Shown here in pieces: positions 19,423-38,835 of a DNA stretch of 64,000 nt. Made by a program: the position numbers and the translations under genes. The notes beneath the pieces were generated by a model, which was not told where the DNA came from, made no database searches, and saw only the letters and a list, made by a program, of their open reading frames with translations. Each line of letters starts with the position of its first letter. Position 1 is the first letter of the stretch. Where the stretch lies: positions 28,148 to 92,147 of the forward strand of contig JBEKMY010000005.1 in NCBI GenBank assembly GCA_049523355.1, in the 5' to 3' direction. The DNA comes from Smithella sp. GTDB taxonomy: Bacteria > Desulfobacterota > Syntrophia > Syntrophales > Smithellaceae.

Positions 19423-19439
19423 AAGCAAAATACAGGCCA
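19423..19439 (-). promoter_or_regulatory. Sigma54 (-24/-12) promoter candidate upstream of the Fur-family gene
   Basis: The reverse complement is TGGCCTGTATTTTGCTT, against the consensus TGGCACG-N4-TTGCW. GG and GC are at the correct 10-nt spacing, about 50 nt upstream of the GTG start. Confidence 0.6.
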
Positions 19440-19584: not shown

Positions 19585-21186
19585 TTATGAACTCTTTTTT
19601 AAATGTATGCCTAACTTCTGCATACGTCCCCTGAGGGTGTTTGGGTGTAATCCGAGAAGAATCGCAGCCCCTTTTGAACCCTCTATCCTCCAATTCGCTT
19701 TCTCCAGAATTTTGAGTATGTGATTTTTTTCTACTTCAGCAAGATTAGTAATGAACTTTCCTTCAGATACGTGTGGTCCGGAATCATCGAGTTTCTCCGC
19801 AAGATAGAGGCTGGTCTCCGTCGCAGTAATGACGGATCTCTCAATGATGTGTTCCAATTCCCTTACATTACCCGGCCAGGAATATGACATAAGTTCCATC
19901 ATGGTATGCTTCGGAACAATCTTGATCTCCTTCTGCATCTTCCTGCAGAACTGTGTCACGAAATGCTTTACCAGAAAAGGAATATCATCATTGCGCTCCC
20001 TTAAGGGGGGCATTGTGATGGGAAAAACATTCAGGCGATAGTAAAGATCCTGCCGGAAACGCCCCTTTGACACTTCTTCTTTAAGATTCCTGCTTGTAAG
20101 GGCAAGAATGCGAGCATCAACCTTGATGGTTTTCGGAGAACCAAGCCGTTCGAATTCCCCGTCCTGTATGGCTCTTAAGAGTTTTGCCTGCAGATCCAGC
20201 GGCAGTTCCGTAATCTCATCAAGAACGAGTGTTCCTTTATCGGCGAGTTCAAAACGGCCAATCTGCATTTCAGTAGAACCGGTATATGCGCCCTTTTCCC
20301 GTCCAAACAATTCGCTTTCGATCAGATTCGGCGTAAGGGCGGCGCAGTTAACGGTCACCATTCTATTTTTTTTCCGGTTACTCAGTTCGTGAATGGTGCG
20401 GGCAATAACTCCCTTTCCTGTTCCCGTTTCTCCAAGAATAAGCGCGACAGAATCCGTTGGCGCAACCTGTTCCATCCTGGAATAAACAAGCCGCATCACC
20501 GCGGATTTTCCAATTATCCCCTCGTAGGTGCACTCTTTTTTAGTCTCATTCCGGAGAGGAAAATCGCCTAACTGAATCTGCTCGTCCAACCGTTGTGCAT
20601 CTATCACGCCTGTTTTATACTTTTCCTCCATGCTTTTGCGGTAAAAGGCGCCGGTAATGATCTCTCCTATCAGTTTCAGCATGGGAATAAGATCAGATGG
20701 AATTTTTCTTTCCTGCTTAATGGTTGTAAACGTCATGCCCGCGATGACCTTGCCGGCAATATGGTATGGGATTACAATATTCGATTTTGTTCCTACTAAC
20801 CGGAAACGCTCTTTATCCTTTGCTGCTTCCGGAGGCAAATCATCAAGACAGCTCAGAGATATGCAACTACCACTCACTACAGCCCTCTTGAAAACCCATG
20901 GGAAATCTTTGTAGCTAAGCCCGTGAGGAAGTGCCGGTAATCCAGGAACAACATACTGGTATTTCCACTTCATATGAGAATCGTCCTCTGAAACTTCCCA
21001 GAAAGCGCAACGGTCAAAATCCAGACACTCAACGATTTGCTTTAATGACTGCGTAATTTTTTCATCGATTTCAGAGACAGGCGCATTGGCGAACCCGGTT
21101 GAAAATTCTAATATCAATTTTTCGAATCCGGGAAACCGCTCCGGTCCTGTATTTATTAGAGAAGAATTTGATTTTTTGTTTTTCAT
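19585..21186 (-). CDS. Sigma54-dependent transcriptional activator (GAF sensor - AAA+ - Fis-type HTH), with no receiver domain
   Basis: Walker A is GETGTGKGVIA. ESELFGREKGAYTGS is the GAFTGA-loop variant. The C-terminal HTH is GSKGAAILLGLHPNTLRGRMQKLGI. The N-terminal ~190 aa are GAF-like. Confidence 0.9.
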   Translation of the reverse strand: MKNKKSNSSLINTGPERFPGFEKLILEFSTGFANAPVSEIDEKITQSLKQIVECLDFDRCAFWEVSEDDSHMKWKYQYVVPGLPALPHGLSYKDFPWVFKRAVVSGSCISLSCLDDLPPEAAKDKERFRLVGTKSNIVIPYHIAGKVIAGMTFTTIKQERKIPSDLIPMLKLIGEIITGAFYRKSMEEKYKTGVIDAQRLDEQIQLGDFPLRNETKKECTYEGIIGKSAVMRLVYSRMEQVAPTDSVALILGETGTGKGVIARTIHELSNRKKNRMVTVNCAALTPNLIESELFGREKGAYTGSTEMQIGRFELADKGTLVLDEITELPLDLQAKLLRAIQDGEFERLGSPKTIKVDARILALTSRNLKEEVSKGRFRQDLYYRLNVFPITMPPLRERNDDIPFLVKHFVTQFCRKMQKEIKIVPKHTMMELMSYSWPGNVRELEHIIERSVITATETSLYLAEKLDDSGPHVSEGKFITNLAEVEKNHILKILEKANWRIEGSKGAAILLGLHPNTLRGRMQKLGIHLKKSS

Positions 21187-21468: not shown

Positions 21469-24400
21469 TCAATGTCCCTGATTTTCTGCTTCACGTAAAT
21501 TATTCCCATTGAGCCATTTGGCAGCTTCGCTAACCGAGTTCTGGTCGAACTTCATGCGGAAACGGATAAAAGGCCCCTGAGCGGTGTAATCTGAAGCGGA
21601 AAAATCTCTATCTTTAAAACCGGTTATATTATAGCCAATACTCACCCAGACATTTTGCATCAAATTATAGCCGGCAGATATTCCGTTGGAGTAATCAAAT
21701 TGTGACGAATTCCATGAATGCAGAATGCTGCTGTCTAACCCGATATCCCAATCCTTGTTAATATCGTAGCGTCCTTCTATTCCGATGAGATCCGTATAGC
21801 CGATATAATCACTGCTGTCTATTTGTTCTTGCACGTACTTAGCGCCATAATGCAGCGAAATCTGTAGATCTTTTTGGGGATTATAGTTAATCATCAGATT
21901 GTCAACGAGTCTCCATGAATTATAATCGGAGCTGCCGCTTCCGCTTAGATCATCAATAATAAAATCCAGACGGTTTAACGCAATCCATTGTGTCTGCGGG
22001 GGGCGATACACAAGGCCCTGACGCAGATCGATTTTAAAGGTATTGGGACCCGAAGTATCGGAGGTCTGGAAGAGCTGAAGGCGTCCCGACACTGCCCAAC
22101 TGCTGTCAACTTCTTTAACAACACCGCTCATCAAACTCCACTTGTTTTCACTGTCCGCCAGACGTAATTCCAGACGGTTATCCCATGTCAGCTTTTTGAT
22201 CTGATAGGTTGCGCCGACGGAAGCAGCGGTAAAATCCTCGCTGATAGCCGTCGCTGTCTGGACACTGCCCGAGACAGGAGACACATTCGTGTTGAACTGG
22301 TAGTGCTCATTATTGGCTACTGTCTGACTGCGTTCCAATCCGGCATCCGCCTTCCAGGCATCGTTGATCTTCCAGCTCTGCTTAAGTCCGACATCGGCAA
22401 AGACACGGTCATCATTCTCATCGAACGCCCTGTTTACCGTGCTGCTTAAAGTAGCTCCATCCCAGAGAGATGTACGCATGCCCAGTCTGGTATTCTGTGT
22501 GTTGGTGCCATTGCCCCAGGTAAATTCCTGAGCGGCCAGCAGGGTGAGGGTTTTGGATACCGCGTATTCCGCTCCCAGAGCAGTACGGGTGGGAAAATCG
22601 CTGTTGTTGTTATTTATGATAGATTGGGCGTGATCCAGTGTCAAAGTCAGACGATCATTGAGCGTCTTGAGCCTGCCACCCAAAGTAATCTGGTCTGACT
22701 CCTCGTTACTGCCATCCGTCAGTTGGTCACTCGCGTGCAATAAGCCTACAGACGCGCTATATTCTTTTGTAGTATAACCCAGTTTGCCTTCGGCTACATC
22801 CCGCGTCGCATCGGTCAGCAGGTTGTCCTGGCGATAGATATCTGCGCTGACGTTTAGAGTATCATTGAAACGATAGGCGCCTTCAACACCTGCTTTACGT
22901 GTGCCTGCCTCGCTGCCCGGCTGCTGTCCCAGCCCAAAACCGGGTTCCTGTTCACGGAAATAGACCTTCACGTCAAATAGTTTGGTATTGTGGGTCAATT
23001 CCGCCAGAAAAGCGCCGCCGCTGTGGTTGTAGGAACTGTCGGAAGCTGCTCCTGAATAGTCGCTGTAAGCATATTCTGCGCGGAGTTTTGTATTCTGATC
23101 CAGTTTTAAAGTTGCATCCGTCCCGTAAAGATTGCCGCTTTGATCGCCATCCCCTTCATGAATATAAGTTACGCCGGCCTTCAGTTTATTATCTAATAGT
23201 TTGACGCCTGCACGGCCTCCATAAGTATAATCATTGTTGTTGCCTGTGGATATGGTTTCATATTCAGCGACAATTATAGTCGGATTAAGGTTCTGGTCCC
23301 TGCTGTAAACAGGTGCCTTAAAGAGAATCGTACCGGCATCGTAATCAATGGAATAATCCGTAAAACTGCTCATGGATTGGGATGAAATAACCACCTCACT
23401 GTGGAAACGATCTCTGACTTCGATAGTAACTTTGTCCGAGTTGGGCACGATGGGATGGTGGGAAAGCCGGTAAATGCCGGAAGTGCCATCGCCGGGAATT
23501 TCATCCCTTGAATAAAGTTGATCGGTCTGGCTTGCAAAAGCATTAAGCTCATAGTTCTTGCTCTGCATTTCCGTTTTAAAGCCGGTCATGCTGCGGCTAT
23601 AGCGAGAAAGTTCCGTCATGGTCAGACCCGTGTTAAAATCGCCGAACATGGCGTAAAACTGTTCTCTCTCAATCTTAATGTACAATTTATTGGTGCTGGC
23701 CGCGTCGTATTTCTGCGCGGAGGCATCCCCGTAAAGCGTGAAATTGGTTTCGGGATTGATCGTCTGGAACAATCCGCTGCCGTTGTTTTCTTTTACCTTG
23801 GCAGAATCATAGGCTATTGTCAGCAGCCATTTACCTTTTATCTGACCCTTGGCAAAGAAGGCGACACGGCCATCCTTGTAGTAATTTTCATCAACATTGG
23901 CGTTCTGCAGATTTTCCATGTTGCCCGAAACGGTATTATAACCGGCAGTTCCTTCGGCCAGACCGACTAATATCCAATCCCTCATTTTGGGATTAGCATA
24001 CGTTTCCGCTTCAACGGTGACATTATTGTAGCCGAGAACAACCCGATAGAGGCCGGTATTGTTAACCGGCGCAAACAGGACTTCTCCCTCCCTGCTCATC
24101 TGAACATGCGGATGGCTGCCGGCGGCAGGCGGCGCCGCAAAAATATCAGGTTTTTTTAACGGAGACAGCGTGCCTTCGCGAATTTCCAGTTCCGTTCCGG
24201 CAGGGATAAGAGTGCCGTCGGCGTCATAGAGTTCAAGATGAAGTTTTACAGGTGTCTTACCGTCGGCAACATTTCCCTCGGCCGATTTCAGCCGGATGGA
24301 AACAATTGCTCCGCTACGTTTCACGGAGATTGCTTGTTTGAACCGGACATTGCCAAAGGGGTCAATGCCCTGAAACACAACAACATGATTTCCTGTCTTT

Positions 24401-27400
24401 CCAAAATCAACGCCGATATAGCTGTAAATCGTCTTATCCGCTTTTTTATCCTTCATCGTGAAACCGATACGATCTTCCGAAACCTCTTTATCGTCAATCA
24501 GCAGGCGCGGAGTCAGTTTGGAACTAAGACAGGCACGAATGCCGTTTATGCTGTTTATCAGAATATCTTTGTCACTCGGATAAAGTATCCCTTCGGGATC
24601 ATTGATTGTCGGCTCAGACTCTTCCGGATTGGTAGCAGCCGAAGCGCCTTGCGCTGCCGAACCCGATTTGTCAGACGCAGTCACACCGGTTGGAGGTTCA
24701 GCTTTAATCGTCGCGTGGCCTTCGGATGCGGAAAGTGAATGATCTCCATTATCCTTTACTTTCTGATCAGCCTCGGGAGAGACAGGAATAACTTTCCCTG
24801 CCGTTTTCGTTTCCGCCCGCATCTGGCCGCTTTGTTCCTTAACAACATTCAAACTCGACTTGTCCACAACACGGCTGGAAGAAATGCGCAATTCGACACG
24901 CCTGTTTAGCGCCTTGCCTTCTGCAGTGCGATTATCTGCAATCGGATTTTCGCTCCCCTTCCCTTCAATAAATAGTTTTTCAGGAGGAAGATGAAGTTTG
25001 TCCATCAGATAACGGCCGACGCTTTTTGCACGCGCCAGAGAAAGCGCCTGATTGTCCGCATACTCACTACGATGACTCTCAGCGATAAGAACGTTATCCG
25101 TGTATCCGGTCACCTGGATTTTTTCCACACGCAAACCGGACAATACTATTGCCAGTTCATCCAGTTTTTTATAGTCTTCAGCGCTCAATTCAGCGCCCCG
25201 CACCGGAAAGTGCGGATGTAATACGATATCGGGCATCTTAGATACTTCAACTTTCTTGTCAAGCTGCAAAACTGTTTCCGCCGGAGGCGTCAGCACTTCC
25301 GCTTTTCCGTCGCCGTCCGCGGCCAGATAAGCCTTTGTTACAAGCTCTCCGGCTTTAATATCGGCAGACGGCATCGCCCGGAATGTAATTTCGTGACGCC
25401 AGCCCGCAGGCAGATCATTGAGCTTGAATACCAGTTGGTCTTTTTCCTGCTGCACCTGCTGCAGAGGGTCGGCAAGGGCAACGCCATCCATCATGCTGCT
25501 GCCCTTCTTGTAAATCACGCCCTGAGGCAGTGTAATGTTTAGTCTTGCCGCGACGAGGGGCAAATCGCTGCCTTTCATAGAAACCTTGTAGGCAATATTT
25601 TCTTTCTCCAGTTGATTGGCCATCTCCAGAACAATTTCACCTTTTACCGGTTCAGGAGCGGCCCGTTTTATAGATGATTTCTTTTTGCGTATATGAAAAT
25701 CCGTGCGCCAGATGACGCCGCCCTTAATTTCGACAAACTGCGAAAATGCCTGCCCGGCAAAACGGGTGTTTTGAGTGCAGGCAAAGGGTTCGTAACCTTC
25801 CGGCAGTGAATCCAAATCCATCTGAACCACATGTGTTCCGGCACGCACTCCTTCAAAATGAAACATACCCTTCTTATCGCTGATAACAAAAGAGCCGTCC
25901 TCCATATATATCCGCACGCCCTCGACGCCGTTGGGTCCGTCACCTGTTTTTTCGTTGCATTCTCCTGTGGAAACACGCCCCATCAGGAATGATTTGGTTT
26001 TCATAAGATCGTCTGTGATAGTAACCGTTACGCTGGCATTGTTTGATTTTAATCCGTTACCGGCGCCGGCAATCGCGTTGTTGGTCGCGTTGCCGAGGCG
26101 TGTTCCGACAGTTACTTCCACCACATAATCTATCGTGACGGAGATTCCTGCCGCCAGAACGCCGACATTAAAAGTAAGCGTTCGGCCATCGGCTGAAATA
26201 AACGGATCGGCTATGGAAACGCCATTTAATTTTGCCGACCCACTGCGATATCTGAAACCGATAGGTAGAGTATCCGTAACCTGAACACCGGCCAGGGCAA
26301 CTGACTTGCTGTTATTGGTGAGTGTCAGCTCGTAGAGAATAAAATCACCCTGTCCCGCGGAGCTCTTATTGGCGGTCTTCTGAAGCCAGAGACCTGAGGC
26401 GGACGGATCAATGGGAATATCAATATGAATAGCCGGACCGGGATTAAGGGTAAATACCTCTCCACGGGAACCGGTAACGATAGCAAATGGCGCGCCGGGT
26501 AGCGACTGAATGGCTGTGGTCGCTACGGTGCTGGGGAAAGTGTATCCGGTCGGCGGAACAACCGTAAATTTATAGCTGCCGGACGGTATGAACGGGAATT
26601 GGTAGCCTCCCGGCGGGAATGAATATAGATTCCCGCTGCTGTCTTTCGCTGAACCGCCGCTGGTAATGGTTGACGGGAAAGTACTGACCCCGTCGTTGCC
26701 GAAAACAGTAGCCGGTAATCCCGTGGCAGTATTAATAATAGTAATGGCGGCTCCATTGACCGGCAGGCCGCTTTGAGTATCAAGCACGTGGCCGAAAGGA
26801 TCGACCGCCACTGTTGAGACCGCCTTGTAGTTATTATTATTAGAATCAACATAAGTAACGTAAATAGTATCTCCGTCCTTGACGGAAAGACTGCCATTAT
26901 ATAAAGTGGCCGCGGCGCTTGTTGTTGGCAGATAACCGGCGAACACACCGGTATTCGGACCGGTTTCGGTCAGGCTTACAATCTCGATATCACCGGTTGA
27001 CGGATCGGTGACTGTAACAAAAATTGTCTCGGCCACATTAGGATTCAAGTTCTGGTCGGGAGATGTCACAACAATAAAAAGCGGTTCTCCCTGATGTATT
27101 TGTGTGGTCGAACTCAGCGGCACAGGCTGGCTTAAGTTAATAGGGGTACTTGTTCCCACCGGAAGCGGTGCAGGCAGAGCGACTAGCGGACCAGTGGCGC
27201 TGCCGGACCTATAGGAGGTTGTAGCTACATTGACATTGTCGGCACCCGAAAGCCCGGGCGAATATGTCATGATTTGCACAGTAGAAGGAGCAGGGATCAC
27301 AACCGTGACGGTCACCGAAGATGTTGCCGTCATTCCCTGCGCGTAATTAAGACTCGCATTGTTGACGATTGTATTCCCTTGAACAGGAGTAAGACATAGA

Positions 27401-27618
27401 GCCGCGGAAGGAACAAAGAACAAAGCAAATACAGCCAGCCCCAACGCGACCGTTGTAATATTGCGAAAACAGGAACAAAGCAAATTCAGGCCGGAACTAA
27501 ACCCGGAACTAAACAAGGAAAGACCTCTGCCGCGCCCCGTTAAAGGCGAGCGGACGGGTTTTCCGGCCATCAGGCCGGAAAACCCGCTGTTTAGTTTTTG
27601 TATCCAGTTCAAAATCAT
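21469..27618 (-). CDS. Giant (2049 aa) outer-membrane protein: Ig-like DUF11/Cna-B-type repeats, an internal OmpA-like peptidoglycan-binding domain and a ~840-aa C-terminal predicted beta-barrel
   Basis: The protein has a hydrophobic signal-like N-terminus. A DUF11-type repeat reads KTANKSSAGQGDFILYELTLTNNS...VTDTLPIGFRY. Cna-B/CarboxypepD_reg-like segments are DTQSGLPVNGAAITIINTATG...GSYKFTVVPPTGYTFPS and VEGVRIYMEDGSFVISDKKGMFHFEGVRAGTHVV. The OmpA motif VTGYTDN...NQALSLARAKSVGRYL...NRRVELRI lies at about nt 24880-25220 and is followed by a low-complexity linker. About nt 21469-23990 is a Tyr/Gly/Asp/Asn-rich stretch of alternating hydrophobicity ending GPFIRFRMKF. Confidence 0.75.
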   Translation of the reverse strand: MILNWIQKLNSGFSGLMAGKPVRSPLTGRGRGLSLFSSGFSSGLNLLCSCFRNITTVALGLAVFALFFVPSAALCLTPVQGNTIVNNASLNYAQGMTATSSVTVTVVIPAPSTVQIMTYSPGLSGADNVNVATTSYRSGSATGPLVALPAPLPVGTSTPINLSQPVPLSSTTQIHQGEPLFIVVTSPDQNLNPNVAETIFVTVTDPSTGDIEIVSLTETGPNTGVFAGYLPTTSAAATLYNGSLSVKDGDTIYVTYVDSNNNNYKAVSTVAVDPFGHVLDTQSGLPVNGAAITIINTATGLPATVFGNDGVSTFPSTITSGGSAKDSSGNLYSFPPGGYQFPFIPSGSYKFTVVPPTGYTFPSTVATTAIQSLPGAPFAIVTGSRGEVFTLNPGPAIHIDIPIDPSASGLWLQKTANKSSAGQGDFILYELTLTNNSKSVALAGVQVTDTLPIGFRYRSGSAKLNGVSIADPFISADGRTLTFNVGVLAAGISVTIDYVVEVTVGTRLGNATNNAIAGAGNGLKSNNASVTVTITDDLMKTKSFLMGRVSTGECNEKTGDGPNGVEGVRIYMEDGSFVISDKKGMFHFEGVRAGTHVVQMDLDSLPEGYEPFACTQNTRFAGQAFSQFVEIKGGVIWRTDFHIRKKKSSIKRAAPEPVKGEIVLEMANQLEKENIAYKVSMKGSDLPLVAARLNITLPQGVIYKKGSSMMDGVALADPLQQVQQEKDQLVFKLNDLPAGWRHEITFRAMPSADIKAGELVTKAYLAADGDGKAEVLTPPAETVLQLDKKVEVSKMPDIVLHPHFPVRGAELSAEDYKKLDELAIVLSGLRVEKIQVTGYTDNVLIAESHRSEYADNQALSLARAKSVGRYLMDKLHLPPEKLFIEGKGSENPIADNRTAEGKALNRRVELRISSSRVVDKSSLNVVKEQSGQMRAETKTAGKVIPVSPEADQKVKDNGDHSLSASEGHATIKAEPPTGVTASDKSGSAAQGASAATNPEESEPTINDPEGILYPSDKDILINSINGIRACLSSKLTPRLLIDDKEVSEDRIGFTMKDKKADKTIYSYIGVDFGKTGNHVVVFQGIDPFGNVRFKQAISVKRSGAIVSIRLKSAEGNVADGKTPVKLHLELYDADGTLIPAGTELEIREGTLSPLKKPDIFAAPPAAGSHPHVQMSREGEVLFAPVNNTGLYRVVLGYNNVTVEAETYANPKMRDWILVGLAEGTAGYNTVSGNMENLQNANVDENYYKDGRVAFFAKGQIKGKWLLTIAYDSAKVKENNGSGLFQTINPETNFTLYGDASAQKYDAASTNKLYIKIEREQFYAMFGDFNTGLTMTELSRYSRSMTGFKTEMQSKNYELNAFASQTDQLYSRDEIPGDGTSGIYRLSHHPIVPNSDKVTIEVRDRFHSEVVISSQSMSSFTDYSIDYDAGTILFKAPVYSRDQNLNPTIIVAEYETISTGNNNDYTYGGRAGVKLLDNKLKAGVTYIHEGDGDQSGNLYGTDATLKLDQNTKLRAEYAYSDYSGAASDSSYNHSGGAFLAELTHNTKLFDVKVYFREQEPGFGLGQQPGSEAGTRKAGVEGAYRFNDTLNVSADIYRQDNLLTDATRDVAEGKLGYTTKEYSASVGLLHASDQLTDGSNEESDQITLGGRLKTLNDRLTLTLDHAQSIINNNNSDFPTRTALGAEYAVSKTLTLLAAQEFTWGNGTNTQNTRLGMRTSLWDGATLSSTVNRAFDENDDRVFADVGLKQSWKINDAWKADAGLERSQTVANNEHYQFNTNVSPVSGSVQTATAISEDFTAASVGATYQIKKLTWDNRLELRLADSENKWSLMSGVVKEVDSSWAVSGRLQLFQTSDTSGPNTFKIDLRQGLVYRPPQTQWIALNRLDFIIDDLSGSGSSDYNSWRLVDNLMINYNPQKDLQISLHYGAKYVQEQIDSSDYIGYTDLIGIEGRYDINKDWDIGLDSSILHSWNSSQFDYSNGISAGYNLMQNVWVSIGYNITGFKDRDFSASDYTAQGPFIRFRMKFDQNSVSEAAKWLNGNNLREAENQGH

Positions 27619-27641
27619 CGCTTCAGCTTTGATCCCGTCAA

Positions 27642-28838
27642 TTAGTTGTTAAGAGTCACCCGGTATAAAACAAGCTCACTCTTATTGGCGGGAATTGTTC
27701 CTCCTGCCGAACTCGTCGCTCCCGTGCCTATATACACGGTCAGTGTGGGTGCGGAGTAATTAGCCGCGCCCGTTCCATTAGCCGTCAAATAAGAAGTGGC
27801 GCCGGAATCGCTTACATAAGTCACATCTGTGCTGCCTGGATATGCGCCTTTCGTGAAAGCGACGTAAGATGTCGGCAGGGAATCCGTGACAACGGAAGCC
27901 GAAACCGATCCCGTCGCGCTTGAATTGGTCGCGACCAGAACATATTCCAGAACATCACCCGGTTTTGCCGTAACTCCCGCCGAGTAATAATTGGTGGAAT
28001 TATAAACATAGGGCGTCCCTGTACCGCTGGCCGTGGATACATTGCGGACATACTTGGTCAGAGTTGCCACACCGCTGGTAAAGGTGTTCAAAACCGCGAG
28101 GGGAGAAGTAGCCGTAACCGACGGATTAGTAGCTGATGCAATGGTCACCTTATCTGAAACCGTTACGTCGGTTCCGGATGAAGTTATCGTCCCGGGAGTG
28201 ACAGTGGTTGTAATAACCTTCTGTTCGGCCACTAACACGCCTGCGCCGGGAGCACCGCCACTCAGACCCTGATTCAGCGTGATGGTGGAAGTGCCGCTGG
28301 CATTGTCGCTGATTGCGAGAACAGTTCTTACATCCCCGTTGATCACCACCGTGGAGCCGACCACGATACCGTTGAGATTGTTGTTGGCTACGCCATCGGA
28401 TGGAACATTTATAACCGTAGCCGAAGATCCGGCAGTGGTAACGGTCCCGCCGAGCGACACAGTGGCAGCGGTTGGACTTGCCCCAGGGGTGCCGGTATTG
28501 GTGTTGGTGGAACCGGAGACCGCCGCGGTAATATTATAAGTATCCGGACCGTTGGCCGTCCCGGTTACAGTATAACTGTCGGTCAGGGTCGCGGTGCCAC
28601 TGTATGAAGTAGTCTGCGCTGTTCCCGCGACAATGTTCGGCGCGGAAGGAACCAGGACTACTGTAACAGAGACACTCGCCGTGGCTGTCTTAGTACCGGT
28701 ACCATCATTATAAGACAGTGTGGCATTGTTGATAATCTGAGTGTTGGCTGCCAGGTTGGCCCAGGCTGAAGCTGCCCAGAAAAAAGCAAACAACAAACTA
28801 ATAAAAATGTAACAACAGGTTATTTTATAAATCTTCAT
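27642..28838 (-). CDS. Secreted Thr/Ser/Gly/Ala/Val-rich DUF11-type protein (398 aa), putative fibre/shaft subunit
   Basis: The signal peptide ends ...AASAWA|NLAANT. The mature part has no Cys, Met, Trp or His. A DUF11-like C-terminal domain reads KPGDVLEYVLVATNSS...VTDSLPTSYV...ELVLYRVTLNN*. It is a paralogue of the 385-aa protein, sharing NGxDTY and both N- and C-terminal motifs. Confidence 0.8.
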   Translation of the reverse strand: MKIYKITCCYIFISLLFAFFWAASAWANLAANTQIINNATLSYNDGTGTKTATASVSVTVVLVPSAPNIVAGTAQTTSYSGTATLTDSYTVTGTANGPDTYNITAAVSGSTNTNTGTPGASPTAATVSLGGTVTTAGSSATVINVPSDGVANNNLNGIVVGSTVVINGDVRTVLAISDNASGTSTITLNQGLSGGAPGAGVLVAEQKVITTTVTPGTITSSGTDVTVSDKVTIASATNPSVTATSPLAVLNTFTSGVATLTKYVRNVSTASGTGTPYVYNSTNYYSAGVTAKPGDVLEYVLVATNSSATGSVSASVVTDSLPTSYVAFTKGAYPGSTDVTYVSDSGATSYLTANGTGAANYSAPTLTVYIGTGATSSAGGTIPANKSELVLYRVTLNN

Positions 28839-28873
28839 ATCTATTTTGATCCTTTTTTATTTTCCCCGGAAAA

Positions 28874-28899
28874 CTGAAGCGGCGTACTTGCCGCTTCAG
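28874..28899 (-). terminator. 10-bp perfect stem-loop between the two shaft-subunit genes; possible partial terminator or attenuator
   Basis: CTGAAGCGGC-gtactt-GCCGCTTCAG. On the minus strand it is followed by TTTTCCGGGG, a short U-tract. It lies 16 nt after the stop of the 385-aa gene. Confidence 0.4.
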
Positions 28900-28914
28900 T
28901 TCCGGTTCAGATTG

Positions 28915-30072
28915 TTAATTTACCGTCACCTGGTATGTTATAGTGGCAGATGAGTTGGCCGGTAAAATACCTGTGGCTAATGCCCCCGCGGTACGGCTGG
29001 TGTTGTTGTCAATCAGTAATCCGGGGGTAATCAGAGGAGAGGTAGCTCCATCGCCGTGAACGGTAATGCTGTTCAAAAGGGTCGAGCTGGCGACATATGT
29101 CGTATATGCCGGCACAGGATCAATCACAGTAACGTTGGTAACCTGCGCGACGGGATGGGGATTTGTAACTACAATCGTGTAGGTAAGCACAGTACCAGGG
29201 ATTATCCCGGTAGTAGGACTTACTGTTTTTGTTATTGTCGCCTTCGGCGAAGACACGGTGGTTGTAACGCCTGTTGTAACCAGCGCTGATCCGCCCGAAG
29301 CCGCCTCGGTAATGGTGAAGAAGGTACTGTAAGTTCCATCTGTTCCGGGTGTGGTTGGTGTGCCCGCAGTCAGCGCCGCCGTCAGGGCAGCGGTCTTGTA
29401 TTCACCAACCTGGGTACCGGCGGCAACACTACCCGCTGTAATGGCCGTTCCACTGATCAAAGTCAGGGTCAGGGTAGCGGGAACTTCAGGTATCAGTGCG
29501 CCGGTGCCAGCATTGGTGGAGGCCGCAGAGCCAGCAGCAATGCCCGTCACCGTATATGTGCTGGCTCCAATCTGTACGGTGGAGGTATTTACCGTTAATT
29601 GGGAGGTAGTGCCGAAAGGAACTTGAATGGTTCCGGCTCCCGACGCACCAACCGTGATACCACCCCAAAGGTTAACACTGGCTGTAACAGATGTTGCCGT
29701 CGCAGCCCCTACATTTGTTGCAGTATTGTTCAGGAGCGACGTACTGTAAGTATCATAACCATTGCTGTTGGACGCGACTTTATAGACATAAGTCACGGCG
29801 CCTCCGGCGACTGTAGTCTGACCAACCGGGTTGGTAACCGTCGGCTGAGCACCCACTGTGTTAACTGTTACGCTGACATTAGCGGTCGCAAAGAGCACGG
29901 TCGTACCTGACGTGTAGTTCACCATGACCGTGTTGTAAATGGTCGCGCCGCCGCTTGTTCTGGCCTGAGCTGCCTGCGGCAGTGCAAAGGCCAACAACGC
30001 CAGTACCGCAAAACCGGTAATAAACGTTCTGATTGCTGTTGATCTGATTCTACTAAATTTCTTTTCCATCAT
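28915..30072 (-). CDS. Secreted Thr/Ser/Gly/Ala/Val-rich DUF11-type protein (385 aa), putative major fibre subunit
   Basis: A strong RBS (AAGGAGGA) precedes the start. The signal peptide ends ...LPQAAQA|RTSGG, and the mature part has no Cys. The C-terminal DUF11 domain reads TKTVSPTTGIIPGTVLTYTIVVTN...VIDPVPAYTTYV...SATITYQVTVN*. Confidence 0.8.
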   Translation of the reverse strand: MMEKKFSRIRSTAIRTFITGFAVLALLAFALPQAAQARTSGGATIYNTVMVNYTSGTTVLFATANVSVTVNTVGAQPTVTNPVGQTTVAGGAVTYVYKVASNSNGYDTYSTSLLNNTATNVGAATATSVTASVNLWGGITVGASGAGTIQVPFGTTSQLTVNTSTVQIGASTYTVTGIAAGSAASTNAGTGALIPEVPATLTLTLISGTAITAGSVAAGTQVGEYKTAALTAALTAGTPTTPGTDGTYSTFFTITEAASGGSALVTTGVTTTVSSPKATITKTVSPTTGIIPGTVLTYTIVVTNPHPVAQVTNVTVIDPVPAYTTYVASSTLLNSITVHGDGATSPLITPGLLIDNNTSRTAGALATGILPANSSATITYQVTVN

Positions 30073-30130
30073 ACTTCCTCCTTAAATAGTTTTGTTTTTA
30101 AATTTTTATAAATACTCGAAATATTCTCTT

Positions 30131-30607
30131 TTATTTCGTTTGCACCTGAAAACCGACCTGACCTTTACCGTGAGCAGGAACCACATTGACCGTCCAGCGG
30201 ATATGGGTGTATTGTTCCGGAGATGCGGTCTTTTTTTCCATCTTGCCGTTTACTTTGACCTCGTAGGTAAGCAGAGAAGGCTTCTTAAAGGTCTTGCCAC
30301 CGTCAATGGAAAAGGTTATTTCCGCGTTATCACCAAAGGCACTGCCGGGAATATAGACAGATCCTTTTGGTATCGGATCATCCAGAAAAGAGTTTGTCGC
30401 CTCCTTATCGCCGGAGTTAACGTAATTGATCGTGTAAAAAATCACGTCTCCAGGATTAACCTTGTCAGCGGCAACCCTCTTTGTAACCTTGTTTACAGTT
30501 ACCTCTTTTTCCGCCTTCATGTGTACTGTAATGAGTGCTTCGGCAAAAACCTGCACTGAAAACAGCAGCAAAATCAGCGCTATCAACAATGGAATAAATT
30601 TTTTCAT
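30131..30607 (-). CDS. Small secreted Lys-rich single DUF11-like domain protein (158 aa)
   Basis: A strong RBS (AAGGAGGA) precedes the start. The signal peptide is MKKFIPLLIALILLLFSVQVFA|EA. The DUF11 core reads VNPGDVIFYTINYVNSGDKEATNSFLDDPIPKGSVYIPGS, and the protein ends GQVGFQVQTK*. Confidence 0.75.
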   Translation of the reverse strand: MKKFIPLLIALILLLFSVQVFAEALITVHMKAEKEVTVNKVTKRVAADKVNPGDVIFYTINYVNSGDKEATNSFLDDPIPKGSVYIPGSAFGDNAEITFSIDGGKTFKKPSLLTYEVKVNGKMEKKTASPEQYTHIRWTVNVVPAHGKGQVGFQVQTK

Positions 30608-30728
30608 TTCATCCTCCTTTTTTCTTTTTTAAAATTGTTCTTGTTAAAAATATGTCCTCTCTTTTACGCTTTCTTTATATTTCATATCAAAAACAGCATC
30701 GAAACCGCTTCCAACGCAATTTTTGCAG

Positions 30729-33695
30729 TCAATTTACCGTCACCTGGAAGACTATTGTGGCAACTCCGCCTGACGGTAAAGTACCGCTCGCCGCGACCGC
30801 TGCAGCACGACCGCTGTTGTTGTCAATCAGTAATCCTGCAATCAGCGGTAAGGTAGAGCCATCGCCGGCCACAGTAATACCGTTCAATCTGGTAGAATTA
30901 GCCACATATGTGGTGTAAGCGGGCAAGTGATCAATCGCAGTAGCGTTTGTCGCTGTTCCGGCGCCGGTATTGGTAATAGTTATCGTATAGGTAAGAACCT
31001 GCCCGGGATTGACGGGACTGGGGCTGGCCGATTTAACAACGGTCAGTGCCGCCGGCAAAGTTACCGACATCGAGGCATATCCGGTATCGCTGACCGTCCC
31101 TTCAGTACCTTCAGTTGCTGTGACACTGATAGACCAGTTGCCTGCGGGGTAAGACGATAATACTTGAAATGCGTAGTCGTATGTTTTCGTCAGGCTCGTC
31201 AGGCTCGCCGGGTAGTAGGTCATTGCAGCGGCAGAGACAATTGTGGTGCCGCTGGGATTCTTGATCGTTATTGTCGGAATATTGACGATATCATAGCTGC
31301 CGAAGGGGTCGCTGACCACCGCACGGATGTAAACCGTGGTGCCGGACGCAACCGAGGATACAATGCTTCCGCCGGGATAAGCAGCACTATACAGGCTGAT
31401 GCTGTTAACATTGATGACATTTTGAGATGGCAGACTCACATATGAATTGTTCGTACCGCTCATTGGATAAACGATAACATTGCGAGTTCCGTTACCGGTA
31501 CTCTGGTTAATGACAGTGAGCTGCCAACTATTACCAGTGGCACAAGTCATGGGGAGCGTTGCAGTTCCATTCGCAGCAGTTAAGGTAAAATTGTATGCAT
31601 TTACTGCTGTAGACATATTGGTTTCAGTCACGTTCCCAGAACTCAGATATGTGCCGGTCGCCGAAGAACAGGCCAGACGAACTTCAACATTGCGGGTTGC
31701 AGTTGCATCGGAGGCCAGATATAGTGTTACCGGAACTGAAGCATTGATTGTTACGTTTGAAGCCAATACCGGATTTTCTGCCGACGTATATGACCCGCCG
31801 GTTTTAGCCAGGGTTTGGGTACCTGTCAATCCCGTTGGTTTTGTGCGGGATAGTTTCCATGTTGGCGTTGACGTGCCGTCATACAAATAGAGTAATTTGG
31901 TTCCCGTACCGGCTGCCGTCCCGCCAACCGTGACCACCGGTGCAACAAGCGTTACAACCGCGCCATTGGGGTTGGTGACGGTAGCGGTATTGTTGATGGC
32001 GGTGCCCGGTGTGTCCGTACTGACAATGGTTGCAGTATAAACAATCGTCACGGAACCATTGGCGGGAATACTGATGCCTGTAGCGCTTAAAGCACCCGCA
32101 CTGTAAGAGCATGTTGCTCCTGACGGACAACCGGTTATGGTTTGGCCTGTCAGATTGGTGGTGTCGATGGTGTCGGCGACAGAGATGCCGCTGGTCGCGA
32201 GTCCGCCGTTTTCATTCAAGGTGATGGTATATTGCAGGGTATCACCGGCCGCATAATTGCTGCCGGTGAGGTCGGTAACCGTTTTAGTGGAAGTTGAAAG
32301 GTTATTTACGGGAACGGTTACCGTTGCGCTGTTGTTGTTGGGATTGTAGTCGGTGACCGAACCGGGGATGACAAGACTCGCTGTGTTGCTGAGCTGGGCT
32401 GGTGCCGGCGCGCTAACGGTACCGGTTATGGTGTAAGTCACCGAACCGCCATAAGGCAGGTTGGCGGTAGTGTTCAGGGCGTTACCGGAGCCGGAAGCAG
32501 CTCCGCAGCTTGTACCCGATGGCGAACCGGCAACAACGGCACAGGTCCAGGCAACGCCTGTAATATTTGTCGGGACATTGTCTGTGATTCCCACACCGGT
32601 GGCAGTAATGTTGTTGGGACCGTAGTTGATCGCGGTAAGGGTATAAGTGATCGGACTGCCTATGGTTGCGGTGGCAACAGATGCCGTCTTGGTGATGCCC
32701 AGATCTATGGAGGTGCTCGTGCCCTGATTGGTCACCAGCAGATTGCGGATTTCATGATAGTTGGTGGAACCGCCGGTACTTGCGGCATAACCGACCATCA
32801 ATGACTGTGAGGTGGAAATCGCGGGAAGCAGCGCGCCGTTAATCATCTGGACAGGAGTTGTATTATAACCAAACTGGATCCAGACATTAGCAGTCGGATT
32901 CGGCGCAGGACTGATCTGGATTATAACTTTACGATAGTTTGCGCTGGTCTGGACCGGCCGGGTTGCCCCGTTGTACCAAAGTGATCCGTTGTTGGCAGAC
33001 GTTGCAATCCAGGGATAAGAGGTGGTACCCTGAGTCGAGCCGATGGCACCATTGCCGAAGCCAACAACGGAGCCGCGAATTGTTACCGTATTGGCTTGTA
33101 AACTATTGCCGAGGTATCGTCCCTCGCAGCCGTAAGCGAAGTTGCCGTACTCGTCGACGCCGATCCCTACGTATCCTCCAGTGATCCCTGGCACGGTAGT
33201 GGCGGGTGGGTTGCAAGTTGCCGTGGAGAGCTTTTGCGCGTAACCGAGAGACCCGCCGAATGCGCCGATAACGAAACCTGGACCTGGACTTGGTACCCCT
33301 GCGTCAAAAAGGTATACACTGTAGCCGTCCGCTCCGCTGCCTCCCCAGGTGGCATAGTCGAACTGGACAAGAAGACCCTGGCTCAGGTCGAAGGGTGTGA
33401 TATTGTAAGCATAGCCGGTCTGGTTGCCCGAGTTGTTGGTGAGTCGCAGCCATCCCGAACCTACCGGGTCGATAGTGCCATTGCCTGTCAGGAGGGATGA
33501 AGTAGGATTGCCGCCTAATACCCAGTTGGTTTGATCTGTACCTGTCATAGGGGCATTTATAATTATGTAGCCGTACGATACACCGCTGCATATAAGCCAA
33601 ATAGCCATGGCCATAAGCAAAAGAGGAATGCTCCGCCGGAAGTTCAGGCTTGCACAGGTTTTATCAATCAGTTTTTTCCGGTAATAAAGAATCAT
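30729..33695 (-). CDS. Secreted 988-aa protein: an N-terminal L-type-lectin/LamG-like domain followed by several DUF11 repeats; putative tip adhesin
   Basis: The signal-like segment is IPLLLMAMAIWLICSGVSYG. The lectin-like block reads GSGWLRLTNNSGNQTGYAYN...LLVQFDYATWGGSGADGYSVYLFD. DUF11 repeats include ITKTASVATATIGSPITYTLTAINYGPNN...ITDNVP and TKTVTDL..AGDTLQYTITLNENG. The C-terminal domain is ~55-60% identical (by eye) to that of the 385-aa protein and ends ATIVFQVTVN*. Confidence 0.8.
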   Translation of the reverse strand: MILYYRKKLIDKTCASLNFRRSIPLLLMAMAIWLICSGVSYGYIIINAPMTGTDQTNWVLGGNPTSSLLTGNGTIDPVGSGWLRLTNNSGNQTGYAYNITPFDLSQGLLVQFDYATWGGSGADGYSVYLFDAGVPSPGPGFVIGAFGGSLGYAQKLSTATCNPPATTVPGITGGYVGIGVDEYGNFAYGCEGRYLGNSLQANTVTIRGSVVGFGNGAIGSTQGTTSYPWIATSANNGSLWYNGATRPVQTSANYRKVIIQISPAPNPTANVWIQFGYNTTPVQMINGALLPAISTSQSLMVGYAASTGGSTNYHEIRNLLVTNQGTSTSIDLGITKTASVATATIGSPITYTLTAINYGPNNITATGVGITDNVPTNITGVAWTCAVVAGSPSGTSCGAASGSGNALNTTANLPYGGSVTYTITGTVSAPAPAQLSNTASLVIPGSVTDYNPNNNSATVTVPVNNLSTSTKTVTDLTGSNYAAGDTLQYTITLNENGGLATSGISVADTIDTTNLTGQTITGCPSGATCSYSAGALSATGISIPANGSVTIVYTATIVSTDTPGTAINNTATVTNPNGAVVTLVAPVVTVGGTAAGTGTKLLYLYDGTSTPTWKLSRTKPTGLTGTQTLAKTGGSYTSAENPVLASNVTINASVPVTLYLASDATATRNVEVRLACSSATGTYLSSGNVTETNMSTAVNAYNFTLTAANGTATLPMTCATGNSWQLTVINQSTGNGTRNVIVYPMSGTNNSYVSLPSQNVINVNSISLYSAAYPGGSIVSSVASGTTVYIRAVVSDPFGSYDIVNIPTITIKNPSGTTIVSAAAMTYYPASLTSLTKTYDYAFQVLSSYPAGNWSISVTATEGTEGTVSDTGYASMSVTLPAALTVVKSASPSPVNPGQVLTYTITITNTGAGTATNATAIDHLPAYTTYVANSTRLNGITVAGDGSTLPLIAGLLIDNNSGRAAAVAASGTLPSGGVATIVFQVTVN

Positions 33696-33974
33696 TATAA
33701 CACCGATAAAAATGCTCTTTTTGTTTATGCGAAGTTATTTCCGCCCTTGATATCTTATATTCAAGGGCATCTGACTTCTTAAAAAAACACTTTGGTAACC
33801 CGTCCGTCCAGTTATTGCTTTTAAAGAAGAGGAGTGGGGGAAAGAACCTGAGCAGTTAAAAAACAATTTCGGATACGTGGCTTTGCGTCGCCGGATTACT
33901 CCGGGTTTGCCTTTATCAGTGTTCGTTTGATTTATATTTTTTCTTAATAAATCAGTTTATCTTGTTTCCTCCGG

Positions 33975-34218
33975 AAAACAAAAAAAGCCGCTCTTTAAAA
34001 AAAGAGTGGCTTTCTTTTTTTTCGAAAAAATACTTTTCGATTTTATAGGTTTGTTCTATAATTAACACTATAACAACACTACCTTTACTAGTACTTTTAC
34101 ATATATTCTCAACATATGAATTTGTCAAGTTTTTTTTCATATAAACGCATAACATCATTGGGGAATAATAATTCTTTTTCATAATGACCATTTCCTATCA
34201 ACTAATAATTATTACTGT
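33975..34218 (-). ncRNA. Candidate ~230-nt sigma54-dependent transcript: an sRNA, or a terminated leader upstream of the surface-protein locus
   Basis: The region is bounded by the -24/-12 promoter at 34229-34245 (transcription start expected near 34218) and the intrinsic terminator at 33986-34022. It is AT-rich. The only ORF (79 aa, 33952..34191) is low-complexity and reads through the terminator stem. Confidence 0.35.
33986..34022. terminator. Intrinsic terminator hairpin with T-tracts on both strands
   Basis: AGCCGCTCTTT-aaaa-AAAGAGTGGCT has an 11-bp stem with one G:U pair (plus strand) or A:C mismatch (minus strand). It is followed by TTCTTTTTTTT on the plus strand and TTTTTTTGTTTT on the minus strand. 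Confidence 0.6.
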
Positions 34219-34228: not shown

Positions 34229-34245
34229 AAGCAATATGCGGGCCA
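34229..34245 (-). promoter_or_regulatory. Sigma54 (-24/-12) promoter candidate, second copy
   Basis: The reverse complement is TGGCCCGCATATTGCTT, with GG and GC at consensus spacing and a TTGCT -12 element. Confidence 0.6.
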
Positions 34246-34366: not shown

Positions 34367-34991
34367 GAGTTTTCTATGCCATCCAGGAATCATCACCTAA
34401 ATGCCAATAGTAATAATTCTAACCTTATCGGTAAAAAATGGGACTTATATACTTGACTCTCTTTATAAATTGCTTCTTGTTTGTAGAAAATTAAATTATA
34501 GTTGCATTGGCCGATATTTTGTCAGGTGATCTCCTGAATATTGTTTATGTAATCTTAAACTTGTAACCTGACGCCTTGAATTTAAGCAATCTGTATGCCA
34601 CAGATATTAATTATAAAAACATTATCATTAATGATACTATTTAGCTTATAAAATCAATCACATGTGATTTAAACATTTGTTTAAAATATAAATAACAGTA
34701 TTTAATCATTAAAAGAAAGCGGGAATTTTCACAAAAAACAGGTTAATTTTACAAATGAATGTTTTGCGAAAACAGTTGTAAGCATTGCGGAGGGGTTCAT
34801 CATTACAAAGAAATTCATCATGAATTGACGGAAGAAGAAACGAAACAAATCTCTAGTAGAAATGAAATGATAATGTATGGGTATAATATTAGAAATTAAC
34901 ATAATACGCTTAGCACGAGGCTAAAAAAGACTAATTTCTTCATTCAACCTCCAAACAGAGGAAGTAAAGTATATAATTCCCTAAAAAATTC

Positions 34992-35052: not shown

Positions 35053-35724
35053 ATGCCCAAAGCGCCCATGACGAAAGAAGAAATAGAAGATACCCGGGAA
35101 CGTATTTTAGATACAGCTCTTGACATCATCATTAAAGACGGATTTAACAATCTAAGCATACGTAAAATAGCCTCCCGTTTAGGCGTTACTGCCACAACTA
35201 TTTATAATTACTATACCAATAAGGATGAACTTAATCTGATGATCCGGATACGCGGGTTTGAGAAGCTCCATGACCTGCTTATAGAAAGATCAGCTCCATT
35301 TAACAATATCGAAGGGCAATTGAGGGCCATGATTCGCGGTTATGTTGAATTCGGCCTGACCCACCCCAGTTACTACGATATAATGTTCAATCTGCACACG
35401 CCTAAATATCTAGACTACGTGGGCACCGATATAGAACCTCTCGCCTATAATGAAAAACAGAACGCATTGAAGTGTTTTTCTCTTTTTATCGAACATATCG
35501 GCGCCTATATAAATGTTACCCAAGAGAAAAAAGATCAGTTCGTGGTGTACCTGCTGGTTAAATTCTGGTCTGATCTTCATGGCCTCGTCACGCTATGCAA
35601 CAGCCGGTTATTTCATGAAGTGCTGGACAACGTGGAGACCTTTATAGAGAAACGAACCTCGGACATGATAGAATATATTGTGCGGCTCAAAGAACGTCTC
35701 GATAAAGGAGAGGCGCTGTTTTAA
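35053..35724 (+). CDS. TetR/AcrR-family transcriptional regulator
   Basis: The N-terminal HTH is ILDTALDIIIKDGFNNLSIRKIASRLGVTATTIYNYYTNKDEL. Length is 223 aa. Confidence 0.9.
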   Translation: MPKAPMTKEEIEDTRERILDTALDIIIKDGFNNLSIRKIASRLGVTATTIYNYYTNKDELNLMIRIRGFEKLHDLLIERSAPFNNIEGQLRAMIRGYVEFGLTHPSYYDIMFNLHTPKYLDYVGTDIEPLAYNEKQNALKCFSLFIEHIGAYINVTQEKKDQFVVYLLVKFWSDLHGLVTLCNSRLFHEVLDNVETFIEKRTSDMIEYIVRLKERLDKGEALF

Positions 35725-35779
35725 ACATAGGCGATAAGAGAATTATTAAATTTTTTATTTTAATTTGGAGATAAAACAC

Positions 35780-38743: not shown

Positions 38744-38835
38744 TACCAATTCGCTTGTACTTGCCACTTTGCAGGTGGCAACTTCAAATCGAAATGGTAT
38801 AAATTTATCGGAGCTATCCGAAATAACATTTACTT

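Follow-up and report, generated by a model that had tools for sequence, protein, structure and literature searches.

A candidate surface fibre of split CLIPPER domains on a giant outer-membrane anchor, encoded by a five-gene operon of Smithella sp.

A 64,000-nucleotide (nt) stretch of DNA from Smithella sp. (Desulfobacterota; GenBank assembly GCA_049523355.1, contig JBEKMY010000005.1, positions 28,148 to 92,147), hereafter the window, contains an operon of five genes that, judging from its sequence, probably builds a surface fibre from split domains of the CLIPPER family on a giant outer-membrane anchor. The five open reading frames (ORFs) lie co-directionally on the minus strand, where the initial annotation had placed them, and encode a putative tip adhesin of 988 amino acids (aa; 30729..33695), a candidate cap subunit of 158 aa (30131..30607), two pilin-like proteins, namely a presumed major pilin of 385 aa (28915..30072) and a presumed adaptor pilin of 398 aa (27642..28838), and a giant protein of 2049 aa that would serve as the anchor (21469..27618). 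The 158-aa protein consists of a signal peptide and one truncated CLIPPER domain, which we will refer to as an acceptor. The 385-aa protein has an N-terminal hairpin, here called the donor, followed by middle domains and a truncated acceptor, and the 398-aa protein a donor hairpin and an acceptor of a distinct class, while the giant protein combines a hairpin with immunoglobulin (Ig)-like domains, an OmpA domain and a barrel. Positions without a locus prefix refer to the window, and the features of these proteins are all on its minus strand.

CLIPPER is the name now used in Pfam for the former DUF11, a CnaA-like Ig fold of known crystal structure (9IFR), in which a Lys in the first strand, a catalytic Asp and an Asn in the next-to-last strand form a triad that closes an intradomain isopeptide bond between Lys and Asn (PMC12617251). 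Scans against Pfam and NCBIfam (cut-offs 24.6 bits for PF01345 and 24 bits for TIGR01451) recovered DUF11/TIGR01451 in three stretches of the 988-aa protein (expectation value, E, 4e-27; 95.4 bits), DUF11 in the 158-aa protein, which had been correctly described as a single DUF11-like domain (E 2e-7; 31.8 bits), TIGR01451 in the 385-aa protein (31.3 bits) and DUF11 at residues 412-530 of the giant protein (40.3 bits); weak matches to TIGR04226, the RrgB isopeptide domain, occur in the 988- and 385-aa proteins. The 398-aa protein matched no family in these scans and is tied to CLIPPER by its homology to the other pilins only.

Complete CLIPPER domains of the proteins encoded by this and related operons keep all three triad residues without exception (22 of 22; an example in the 988-aa protein is at 32313-32705). 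The C-terminal domains of the 988-, 385-, 398- and 158-aa proteins, by contrast, end before the Asn strand and the final strand. They carry the Lys (in the contexts LTVVK, ATITK or ATLTK) and the Asp (AIDHLP, VIDPVP, VTDSLP or LDDPIP) and finish at a free C-terminus, ...QVTVN or ...RVTLNN, while the Asn is found at the N-terminus of another protein. The mature N-termini of the 385-, 398- and 2049-aa proteins form a two-strand hairpin (I-x-N-x-A-x-[VL]-x-Y, a turn, then ...VSVTV), which corresponds to the two strands missing from the acceptors, Asn included. According to the initial annotation, the subunits are the pieces of a cut DUF11 chain and would join again, head to tail, in the order tip, shaft, anchor. 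The core of this proposal is supported indirectly by synteny, orphan partners, profile alignments and a gene fusion, all described below; the position of the cut has to be revised, since it lies inside the CLIPPER domain, ahead of its last two strands, and not between repeats.

The residues of the triad are conserved on both sides of the cut. In 72 homologues of the 385-aa protein, with identities down to 43%, N47 of the hairpin and K282 and D318 of the truncated domain are invariant, and in the alignment of this family they coincide with the triad columns of complete domains. As read from the alignment, the Lys is kept in 38 of 40 acceptor domains from tip proteins and pilins, and Asp or Glu in about as many; one acceptor ORF without the Lys, a tip-like copy in the related locus L014 (L014_18011), has lost the Asp as well. 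The sharing of terminal motifs, already pointed out in the initial annotation, is not due to chance: every member of the 385-aa family ends in ...[YF]x[VI]x[VI][NQD]-COOH, and the I-x-N hairpin is present in the pilins and giant proteins of more than 20 loci. Likewise, the distribution seen in the window, with only the C-terminal motif in the lectin-like protein and only the N-terminal one in the giant protein, is general, as tips and 158-like proteins possess an acceptor and no hairpin, and giant proteins a hairpin and no truncated domain. For these orphan acceptors and orphan donors pairing is possible in trans only.

The correspondence between hairpins and missing strands was further examined by aligning acceptor profiles to a complete-domain profile of 132 columns (aligned columns are given with scores in brackets). 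The 385 acceptor aligned alone to columns 4-98 (89.0) and with the real hairpin appended to 4-130 (96.9), as against 4-104 (90.1) with the reversed hairpin and 4-100 (89.2) with an unrelated 36-aa segment of the same protein. For the 398-type acceptor the alignment covered 16-98 (53.0) alone, 16-130 (67.3) with the hairpin of the giant protein from the same locus and 16-99 (53.3) with the reversed sequence, and for the 158 acceptor 9-62 (62.5) alone, 9-130 (77.2) with the hairpin of the first pilin and 9-99 (65.8) with its reverse. The end of the complete-domain model was thus attained only when a real hairpin had been appended. Pfam scans and simple hidden Markov models (HMMs) showed trends in the same direction, although weaker.

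A gene fusion bears on the same point. In a Syntrophaceae genome (locus L013) a 398-type pilin is joined in frame to the giant protein at the start of the hairpin, resulting in an ORF of 2059 aa (L013:11251-17430) in which the leader of the giant protein is deleted; the junction reads ...ILILYRATVGN-ANQGNQIVSSARFSS...SSVTVTVV. An identical fusion, interrupted by one frameshift, occurs in locus L025 from another sample (L025:6241-12736) and was the only one recovered in a search for further pilin-anchor fusions. In both fusions the acceptor Lys is replaced by Gln and the donor Asn by Ser, whereas free-standing 398-type pilins retain the Lys. The fusion sits at the predicted junction, and the predicted partner residues have been relaxed where the backbone joins both parts. 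The fused domain of L013 was not detected by Pfam.

The cassette was found again in more than 20 loci by look-ups of genomic context and a scan of one genome per species, and these loci belong to Desulfobacterota, Nitrospirota, Zetaproteobacteria and Gammaproteobacteria. Its hosts include Desulfuromonadales, Smithella, Syntrophaceae, a Nitrospirae genome, Zetaproteobacteria and Pseudomonadales, as well as the cultured Desulfosarcina widdelii, Geomonas silvestris, Geomobilimonas luticola and Geobacter sp. AOG1. Gene order is preserved in L001, L003, L004 and L006-L025. All complete loci encode, in this order, a large variable protein (525-2095 aa), a 158-homologue of 156-240 aa, one to three pilins (353-499 aa) and a giant protein (1637-2465 aa). 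Even loci with a single pilin (L009, L011, L012) still possess tip, cap and anchor. The gene for the large variable tip-like protein lies, in some loci, on the other strand or downstream of the giant gene (L004:18690-21638; L014:18011-20152, minus strand; L020:19332-21080, minus strand; L024:15513-19640). At least 171 homologues of the 385-aa protein exist, none of which bears a functional name, and for the last 1050 residues of the giant protein the candidates scored include at least 1,386 homologues. A partial Smithella protein shares 92% identity with the giant protein. Our literature search found no paper in which the cassette is described.

From these observations the following mechanism may be proposed. 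The subunits would be exported by Sec and the fibre anchored in the outer membrane. Each pilin would expose a C-terminal CLIPPER domain that lacks its last two beta-strands and retains the isopeptide Lys and the catalytic Asp, and cleavage of the signal peptide would free an N-terminal two-strand hairpin bearing the partner Asn. This hairpin would complete the C-terminal domain of the next subunit outward (donor-strand complementation). The conserved Lys and Asp in acceptors and Asn in donors lead us to propose a covalent intermolecular isopeptide lock, which was not part of the initial annotation: Lys and Asn would then probably bond spontaneously between subunits, as a natural counterpart of SpyTag/SpyCatcher, in which a split isopeptide domain reassembles and ligates in trans. 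The far end of the fibre would be an acceptor-only cap, either the 988-aa lectin-like adhesin or the minimal 158-aa protein, followed by a polymer of the 385-aa pilin, one 398-aa adaptor and the N-terminal hairpin of the giant protein, whose OmpA domain would bind peptidoglycan and whose barrel of about 32 strands would lie in the outer membrane and may serve as export pore. Fibre length would be set by the ratio of the major pilin to adaptor and anchor. Growth could start with the cap and proceed at the base, as in chaperone-usher pili, or start at the anchor and end with the cap. A role of such a fibre in adhesion or aggregation would fit.

Several observations weigh against this model. The likeness of the barrel, the putative passage for folded or unfolded subunits across the outer membrane, to solved structures is generic only (template modelling score, TM-score, at most 0.26). 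Each cassette encodes two acceptor-only proteins (of 988 and 158 aa in the window) where a single linear fibre would need one, and the strong ribosome-binding site of the 158-aa gene is odd for a cap present once per fibre. Appending donors to acceptors in silico brought small gains, of 2-3 bits in Pfam scores and, with a custom HMM, of 1.6-3.4 bits on average across all pairs. In pilins about 5 of 41 donors, and in giant proteins about 5 of 19, have Ser, Ala or Asp in place of the Asn, and the catalytic Asp is substituted in several 158-like proteins. The fusion represents a single evolutionary event in two assemblies, and in this lineage the N-terminal donor of the fused protein lacks its Asn, too. 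Finally, the AlphaFold2 monomer of the 385-aa protein is compact (predicted local distance difference test, pLDDT, 91; predicted TM-score, pTM, 0.75) and docks the hairpin in cis (hairpin pLDDT 93-95), as would a closed, circularly permuted domain, a result which cannot separate such a domain from the self-complementation that is common in monomer models of donor-strand pilins such as TafA (PMC11821415).

The substitutions in particular raise the alternative of a non-covalent fibre, held together by donor-strand complementation without a bond, in which Lys, Asp and Asn would be structural remnants of the fold from which the subunits derive. Chaperone-usher pili reach great stability with no covalent links, and oligomers of BsaA remain SDS-stable even when the bond is absent (PMC11580942); the missing Asn of some donors and the missing Asp or Lys of some 158-like acceptors would be expected. 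We nevertheless regard this alternative as unlikely: the three residues are invariant across the 72 homologues of the 385-aa protein, L014_18011 has lost Lys and Asp together, both Lys and Asn disappeared in L013 and L025, where the backbone itself makes the connection, and the only known role of the triad in CLIPPER domains is the isopeptide bond (PMC12617251).

The second uncertainty concerns the acceptor-only proteins. The 988-aa protein carries a lectin-like domain (32745-33488) and ends in a truncated acceptor (30732-31046; K in LTVVK, D in AIDHLP) without having a donor hairpin. Its description as an L-type lectin with DUF11 repeats is secure for the DUF11 part, while the lectin label stays tentative, as the match is weak (23 bits against a cut-off of 78), although it spans positions 13-212 of the 215-position profile; a Protein Data Bank (PDB) search with this region returned nothing useful. 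The acceptor shares 58% identity with that of the 385-aa pilin, so a hairpin fitting one should fit the other, and similarly the tips of L006 and L017 find their best acceptor match in the major pilin of their own locus. The mature 158-aa protein comprises a single domain, the first strand of which follows after a few N-terminal residues. Lacking a donor hairpin, the protein could cap an end only, which makes it a candidate cap, or possibly an assembly factor, and not the adaptor for which it had been taken. Its homologues form the best-conserved small component and are present in every related locus; tandem 158-like genes occur in L013 (8819-9316 and 9501-9983) and L025 (3655-4131 and 4475-4951). 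A protein-representative search with the 158-aa sequence was swamped by giant multi-repeat DUF11 proteins, so that family size is not readable from it.

As an assembly factor the 158-aa protein would be a periplasmic chaperone-like protein or initiator that holds donor hairpins until export. Such a role would suit its ubiquity and conservation and a ribosome-binding site that equals the one of the major pilin gene in strength, and a pathway without chaperones must somehow block polymerisation in the periplasm. We do not think it likely, because the protein ends at the same structural point as the pilin acceptors, because it usually keeps Lys and an acidic residue, which would trap a bound hairpin covalently, and because a related domain terminates several tip proteins, which marks it as a tip-type domain.

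The two paralogous pilins appear to have different functions. Neither has Cys in its mature part, as had been noted: the 385-aa protein contains none, and the two Cys of the 398-aa protein are both in the signal peptide. In the 385-aa protein the donor hairpin with the invariant N47 comprises residues 43-70 (29863-29946) and the truncated acceptor with K282 and D318 residues 276-385 (28918-29247). Sequence searches of the PDB with this protein and with an acceptor-donor construct found no matches, and Foldseek against the PDB aligned the pilin model weakly to Ig-like adhesins and pilins. We infer that it is the major pilin from its strong ribosome-binding site, the hairpin after its gene and an acceptor of the same type as in the tip. 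The 398-aa protein has its donor hairpin at residues 31-62 (28653-28748; TQIINNATLSY) and an acceptor that forms a class of its own (27645-28076), with its K in ATLTKYVRN and its D in VTDSLP. The 398-type gene is without exception the last pilin gene before the giant gene and it is this type that is fused to the giant protein in L013 and L025; position, acceptor class and fusion indicate that the protein is probably the adaptor that receives the hairpin of the giant protein, a better reading than the second shaft subunit previously assumed.

Two other arrangements have to be weighed against a polymer of the 385-aa protein. A short complex of fixed composition, in which tip, adaptor and anchor are each present once and a few modules, with a single pilin or a small number of them, extend the giant protein in place of a long homopolymer, seems quite unlikely to us. 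In its favour, the hairpin of the 385-aa protein adds only 2.9 bits to the acceptor of this protein in the custom HMM as against 14 bits for the 398 hairpin, and loci contain one to three different pilins; on the other hand, a strong ribosome-binding site and a following hairpin are typical of major pilin genes, the 988 and 385 acceptors are alike, and single-pilin loci keep tip, cap and anchor. Very unlikely is a set of five separate envelope proteins with closed monomers, in which the hairpin of each pilin completes the C-terminal domain of the same chain in cis, giving a CLIPPER domain that is circularly permuted and bonded within the molecule: the compact model of the 385-aa protein agrees with it, and the profile tests are blind to cis or trans within a pilin, but it leaves the orphan acceptors and donors without partners, the fusion connects an acceptor with a hairpin that belongs to a different protein, tip acceptors track the pilin acceptor of the same locus, and self-complementation in models of donor-strand pilins is usual.

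The giant protein, the anchor in the fibre model, begins with a leader including the signal peptide (27391-27618), followed by the donor hairpin (residues 80-105; 27304-27381) and about 700 residues of Ig-like domains, one of which (26011-26406) is a complete CLIPPER domain that has a K-D-N triad of its own. Leaders of giant proteins, in the window as in L001-L021, are unusually long, with some 40-110 basic, loosely conserved residues ahead of the hydrophobic core of the signal peptide, reminiscent of the extended signal peptides of autotransporters. A lipoprotein signal was considered and rejected, as homologues have no Cys at that position. An OmpA-like peptidoglycan-binding domain (PF00691; residues 804-906; 24901-25209) is well supported (E 9e-18; 64.9 bits against a cut-off of 27.2), and OmpA and MotB chains in the PDB match the same region. 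Some giant homologues are devoid of the OmpA domain. A low-complexity linker leads to a pair of Ig-like sandwiches (23989-24591). Next come a stretch that is poorly modelled, a small beta domain and finally the barrel (21553-23283), a layout taken from an AlphaFold2 model of residues 1000-2049 (mean pLDDT 71, pTM 0.52). About 31-32 long antiparallel strands in this model agree with the huge C-terminal beta-barrel that had been predicted. No Pfam model covers residues 1000-2049, and Foldseek against the PDB returned generic matches to LptD, MtrB, SprA, SlpA, ushers and TonB-dependent receptors. Near the C-terminus a conserved ...GPF[IV]RFRxKF looks like an outer-membrane insertion signal. That the barrel doubles as an export pore is a guess.

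The cassette lacks parts that define chaperone-usher pili, sortase pili, type V pili, type V secretion, curli and the type IX secretion system (T9SS), and membership of each of these was therefore rejected. Within about 13 kb of the operon we found no genes for a chaperone, usher, sortase, type IV pilus, two-partner secretion, T9SS or curli, in agreement with the initial annotation. In architecture the predicted fibre resembles the chaperone-usher (type 1 and P) pili, whose subunits are exported by Sec and complete an incomplete Ig-like fold with the N-terminal donor of a neighbour, and which follow a hierarchy from lectin tip adhesin via adaptor and rod to a terminator, favour the major subunit in the operon and have an outer-membrane barrel at the base. 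The completion of a pilin by its neighbour would obey a homologous logic, for which the profile alignments and the fusion speak. Here, however, the donor is a two-strand hairpin, the domain is of CnaA type, the link is probably covalent, and terminator and anchor reside within the barrel protein, which has an OmpA domain in addition. A PapD-like chaperone is absent over the same distance and from related cassettes; L003 has a separate chaperone-usher cluster further downstream of its cassette. Nor is the barrel an identifiable usher (PF00577, a 24-strand barrel with plug), given that Pfam gave no match and Foldseek a query-normalised TM-score of 0.18-0.19 to FimD.

In its chemistry the proposed junction resembles that of BsaA of Clostridium perfringens, a TasA-family protein with donor-strand exchange and lock, where an N-terminal donor strand and an Asn-acid-Lys triad produce a spontaneous intermolecular bond without sortase (PMC11580942). 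N47, K282 and D318 in 72 sequences provide the analogous triad in another fold. BsaA differs in its TasA/camelysin-like fold, which has no sequence relationship, its single membrane and the lack of an outer-membrane anchor and of a tip or adaptor hierarchy, and Pfam and NCBIfam gave no TasA/camelysin match. Archaeal threads of Sulfolobus acidocaldarius similarly combine head-to-tail donor strands with apparent intersubunit isopeptide bonds and have a putative cap subunit gene beside the main subunit gene, but their bond connects the N-terminal amino group with an Asn at a distance of two subunits, their fold is another one and there is no outer membrane (PMC9715654). In the haloarchaeal tat-fimbriae ('tafi') a LamG-like tip, adaptor, major subunit and membrane anchor are modelled as joined by donor strands, with the differences of Tat export, reversed polarity (the tip donates the first strand), no isopeptide triad and a transmembrane-helix anchor (PMC11821415).

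Gram-positive sortase pili are covalent polymers with CnaA/CnaB-type isopeptide domains and tip, backbone and base pilins; the link proposed here would come from the triad of the fold itself and not from a transpeptidase, and the cassette has no sortase gene nearby, no LPXTG motif and free C-termini. CLIPPER fibrillar adhesins share the domain family and the Lys-Asp-Asn chemistry, and differ in being single long chains with bonds within each domain (PMC12617251), while the split here would be natural and serve ordered polymerisation. Type V pili of Bacteroidota (Fim/Mfa) are Gram-negative strand-exchange fibres with anchor, shaft and tip and without a classical usher, but consist of protease-cleaved lipoproteins with a C-terminal donor strand and a non-covalent link; the signal peptides found here are AxA-like without lipobox and the donors N-terminal. 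With regard to type V secretion, there is no Pfam match to a 12- or 16-strand beta-domain or to POTRA, and the modelled barrel has about 31-32 strands. By analogy, the system appears to combine a polarity and hierarchy like those of chaperone-usher pili with a self-forming bond like those of BsaA or the archaeal threads, and to be a member of none of these groups. Tentatively, it is possible that it represents a widespread, undescribed class of Gram-negative pili, in which cuts within domains allow ordered polymerisation, Lys-Asn junctions seal themselves without sortase, chaperone or usher, the giant protein is at once pore, tether and chain-terminating donor, and each operon holds several mutually specific tag/catcher pairs.

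The regulatory region of the operon contains an element that the initial annotation had not recorded, a c-di-GMP-I riboswitch aptamer (RF01051; c-di-GMP, cyclic dimeric guanosine monophosphate) in the 5' leader on the operon strand (33791..33921), some 95 nt ahead of the start codon (ATG) of the 988-aa gene. It matches the full-length model with 53.7 bits (gathering score 35), and the same class also precedes the cassette in L001, L003, L004, L009, L015, L017 and L019, all Desulfobacterota; none was found in the three gammaproteobacterial loci tested. Further upstream are two matches to the sigma-54 promoter pattern, TGGCATACAGATTGCT (34585..34600) and TGGCCCGCATATTGCT (34230..34245), both on the operon strand in the 1.36-kb upstream spacer, and between them and the riboswitch a terminator-like hairpin with a T-run (33978..34013, minus strand). 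The pattern occurs 5 times in the window, where chance alone would give 1.42 occurrences. Directly downstream of the giant gene lies a gene for a sigma-54 enhancer-binding protein of 533 aa (19585..21186, minus strand), a probable regulator of the operon, and sigma-54 activator genes adjoin the cassette also in L003 and in L023 / Desulfosarcina widdelii. The riboswitch, whose ligand may be c-di-GMP or cGAMP, would control the operon, probably together with sigma-54. A third sigma-54-type match (19424-19439, minus strand) is situated just upstream of a Fur-like gene (18942-19376), downstream of the activator gene. In L003 a second riboswitch, of the c-di-GMP-I-GGC type, is followed by SCPU and PapD_N genes downstream of the cassette (L003:19016-21143), resembling an archaic chaperone-usher cluster under like control, and in the Nitrospirae locus L024 the cassette is closely preceded by genes for a PilZ-domain protein and a GGDEF-EAL protein (L024:3018-6875), which would be a further link to c-di-GMP.

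Signals for unequal expression within the operon, which had been noted before, are all present. AAGGAGGA serves as a strong ribosome-binding site for the 158- and 385-aa genes, while the sites of the remaining three genes are weak, and the 385-aa gene is followed by a hairpin (28866..28905, minus strand; -29.6 kcal/mol) and TTTT, which is probably a partial terminator that reduces expression of adaptor and anchor. The products of the genes around the operon, over the same distance of about 13 kb, are Lon, RadC, a patatin-like protein, an acyl-CoA ligase, the sigma-54 activator and, from the plus strand (35053-39771), a TetR-type regulator, a 992-aa glycyl-radical enzyme and its radical-SAM activase, the last three being apparently unconnected with the fibre operon. 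A PADLOC search produced the OmpA region as its sole match.

To our knowledge, the covalent pili described until now are those of Gram-positive bacteria, where they are built by sortases. If the interpretation given here is true, the cassette would provide a new route of pilus assembly in Gram-negative bacteria that needs no dedicated enzyme or chaperone, and its donor hairpins and truncated domains could yield new, mutually specific pairs for protein ligation. With four cultured species that carry the cassette, the hypothesis is directly testable. The giant family spans sediment, syntrophic and iron-cycling bacteria, among them Geobacter relatives, Smithella, Desulfosarcina, Nitrospirota and Zetaproteobacteria, and since the c-di-GMP riboswitch connects the system with attachment and aggregation, the fibre would be a candidate for mediating contact between syntrophic partners or with mineral surfaces.

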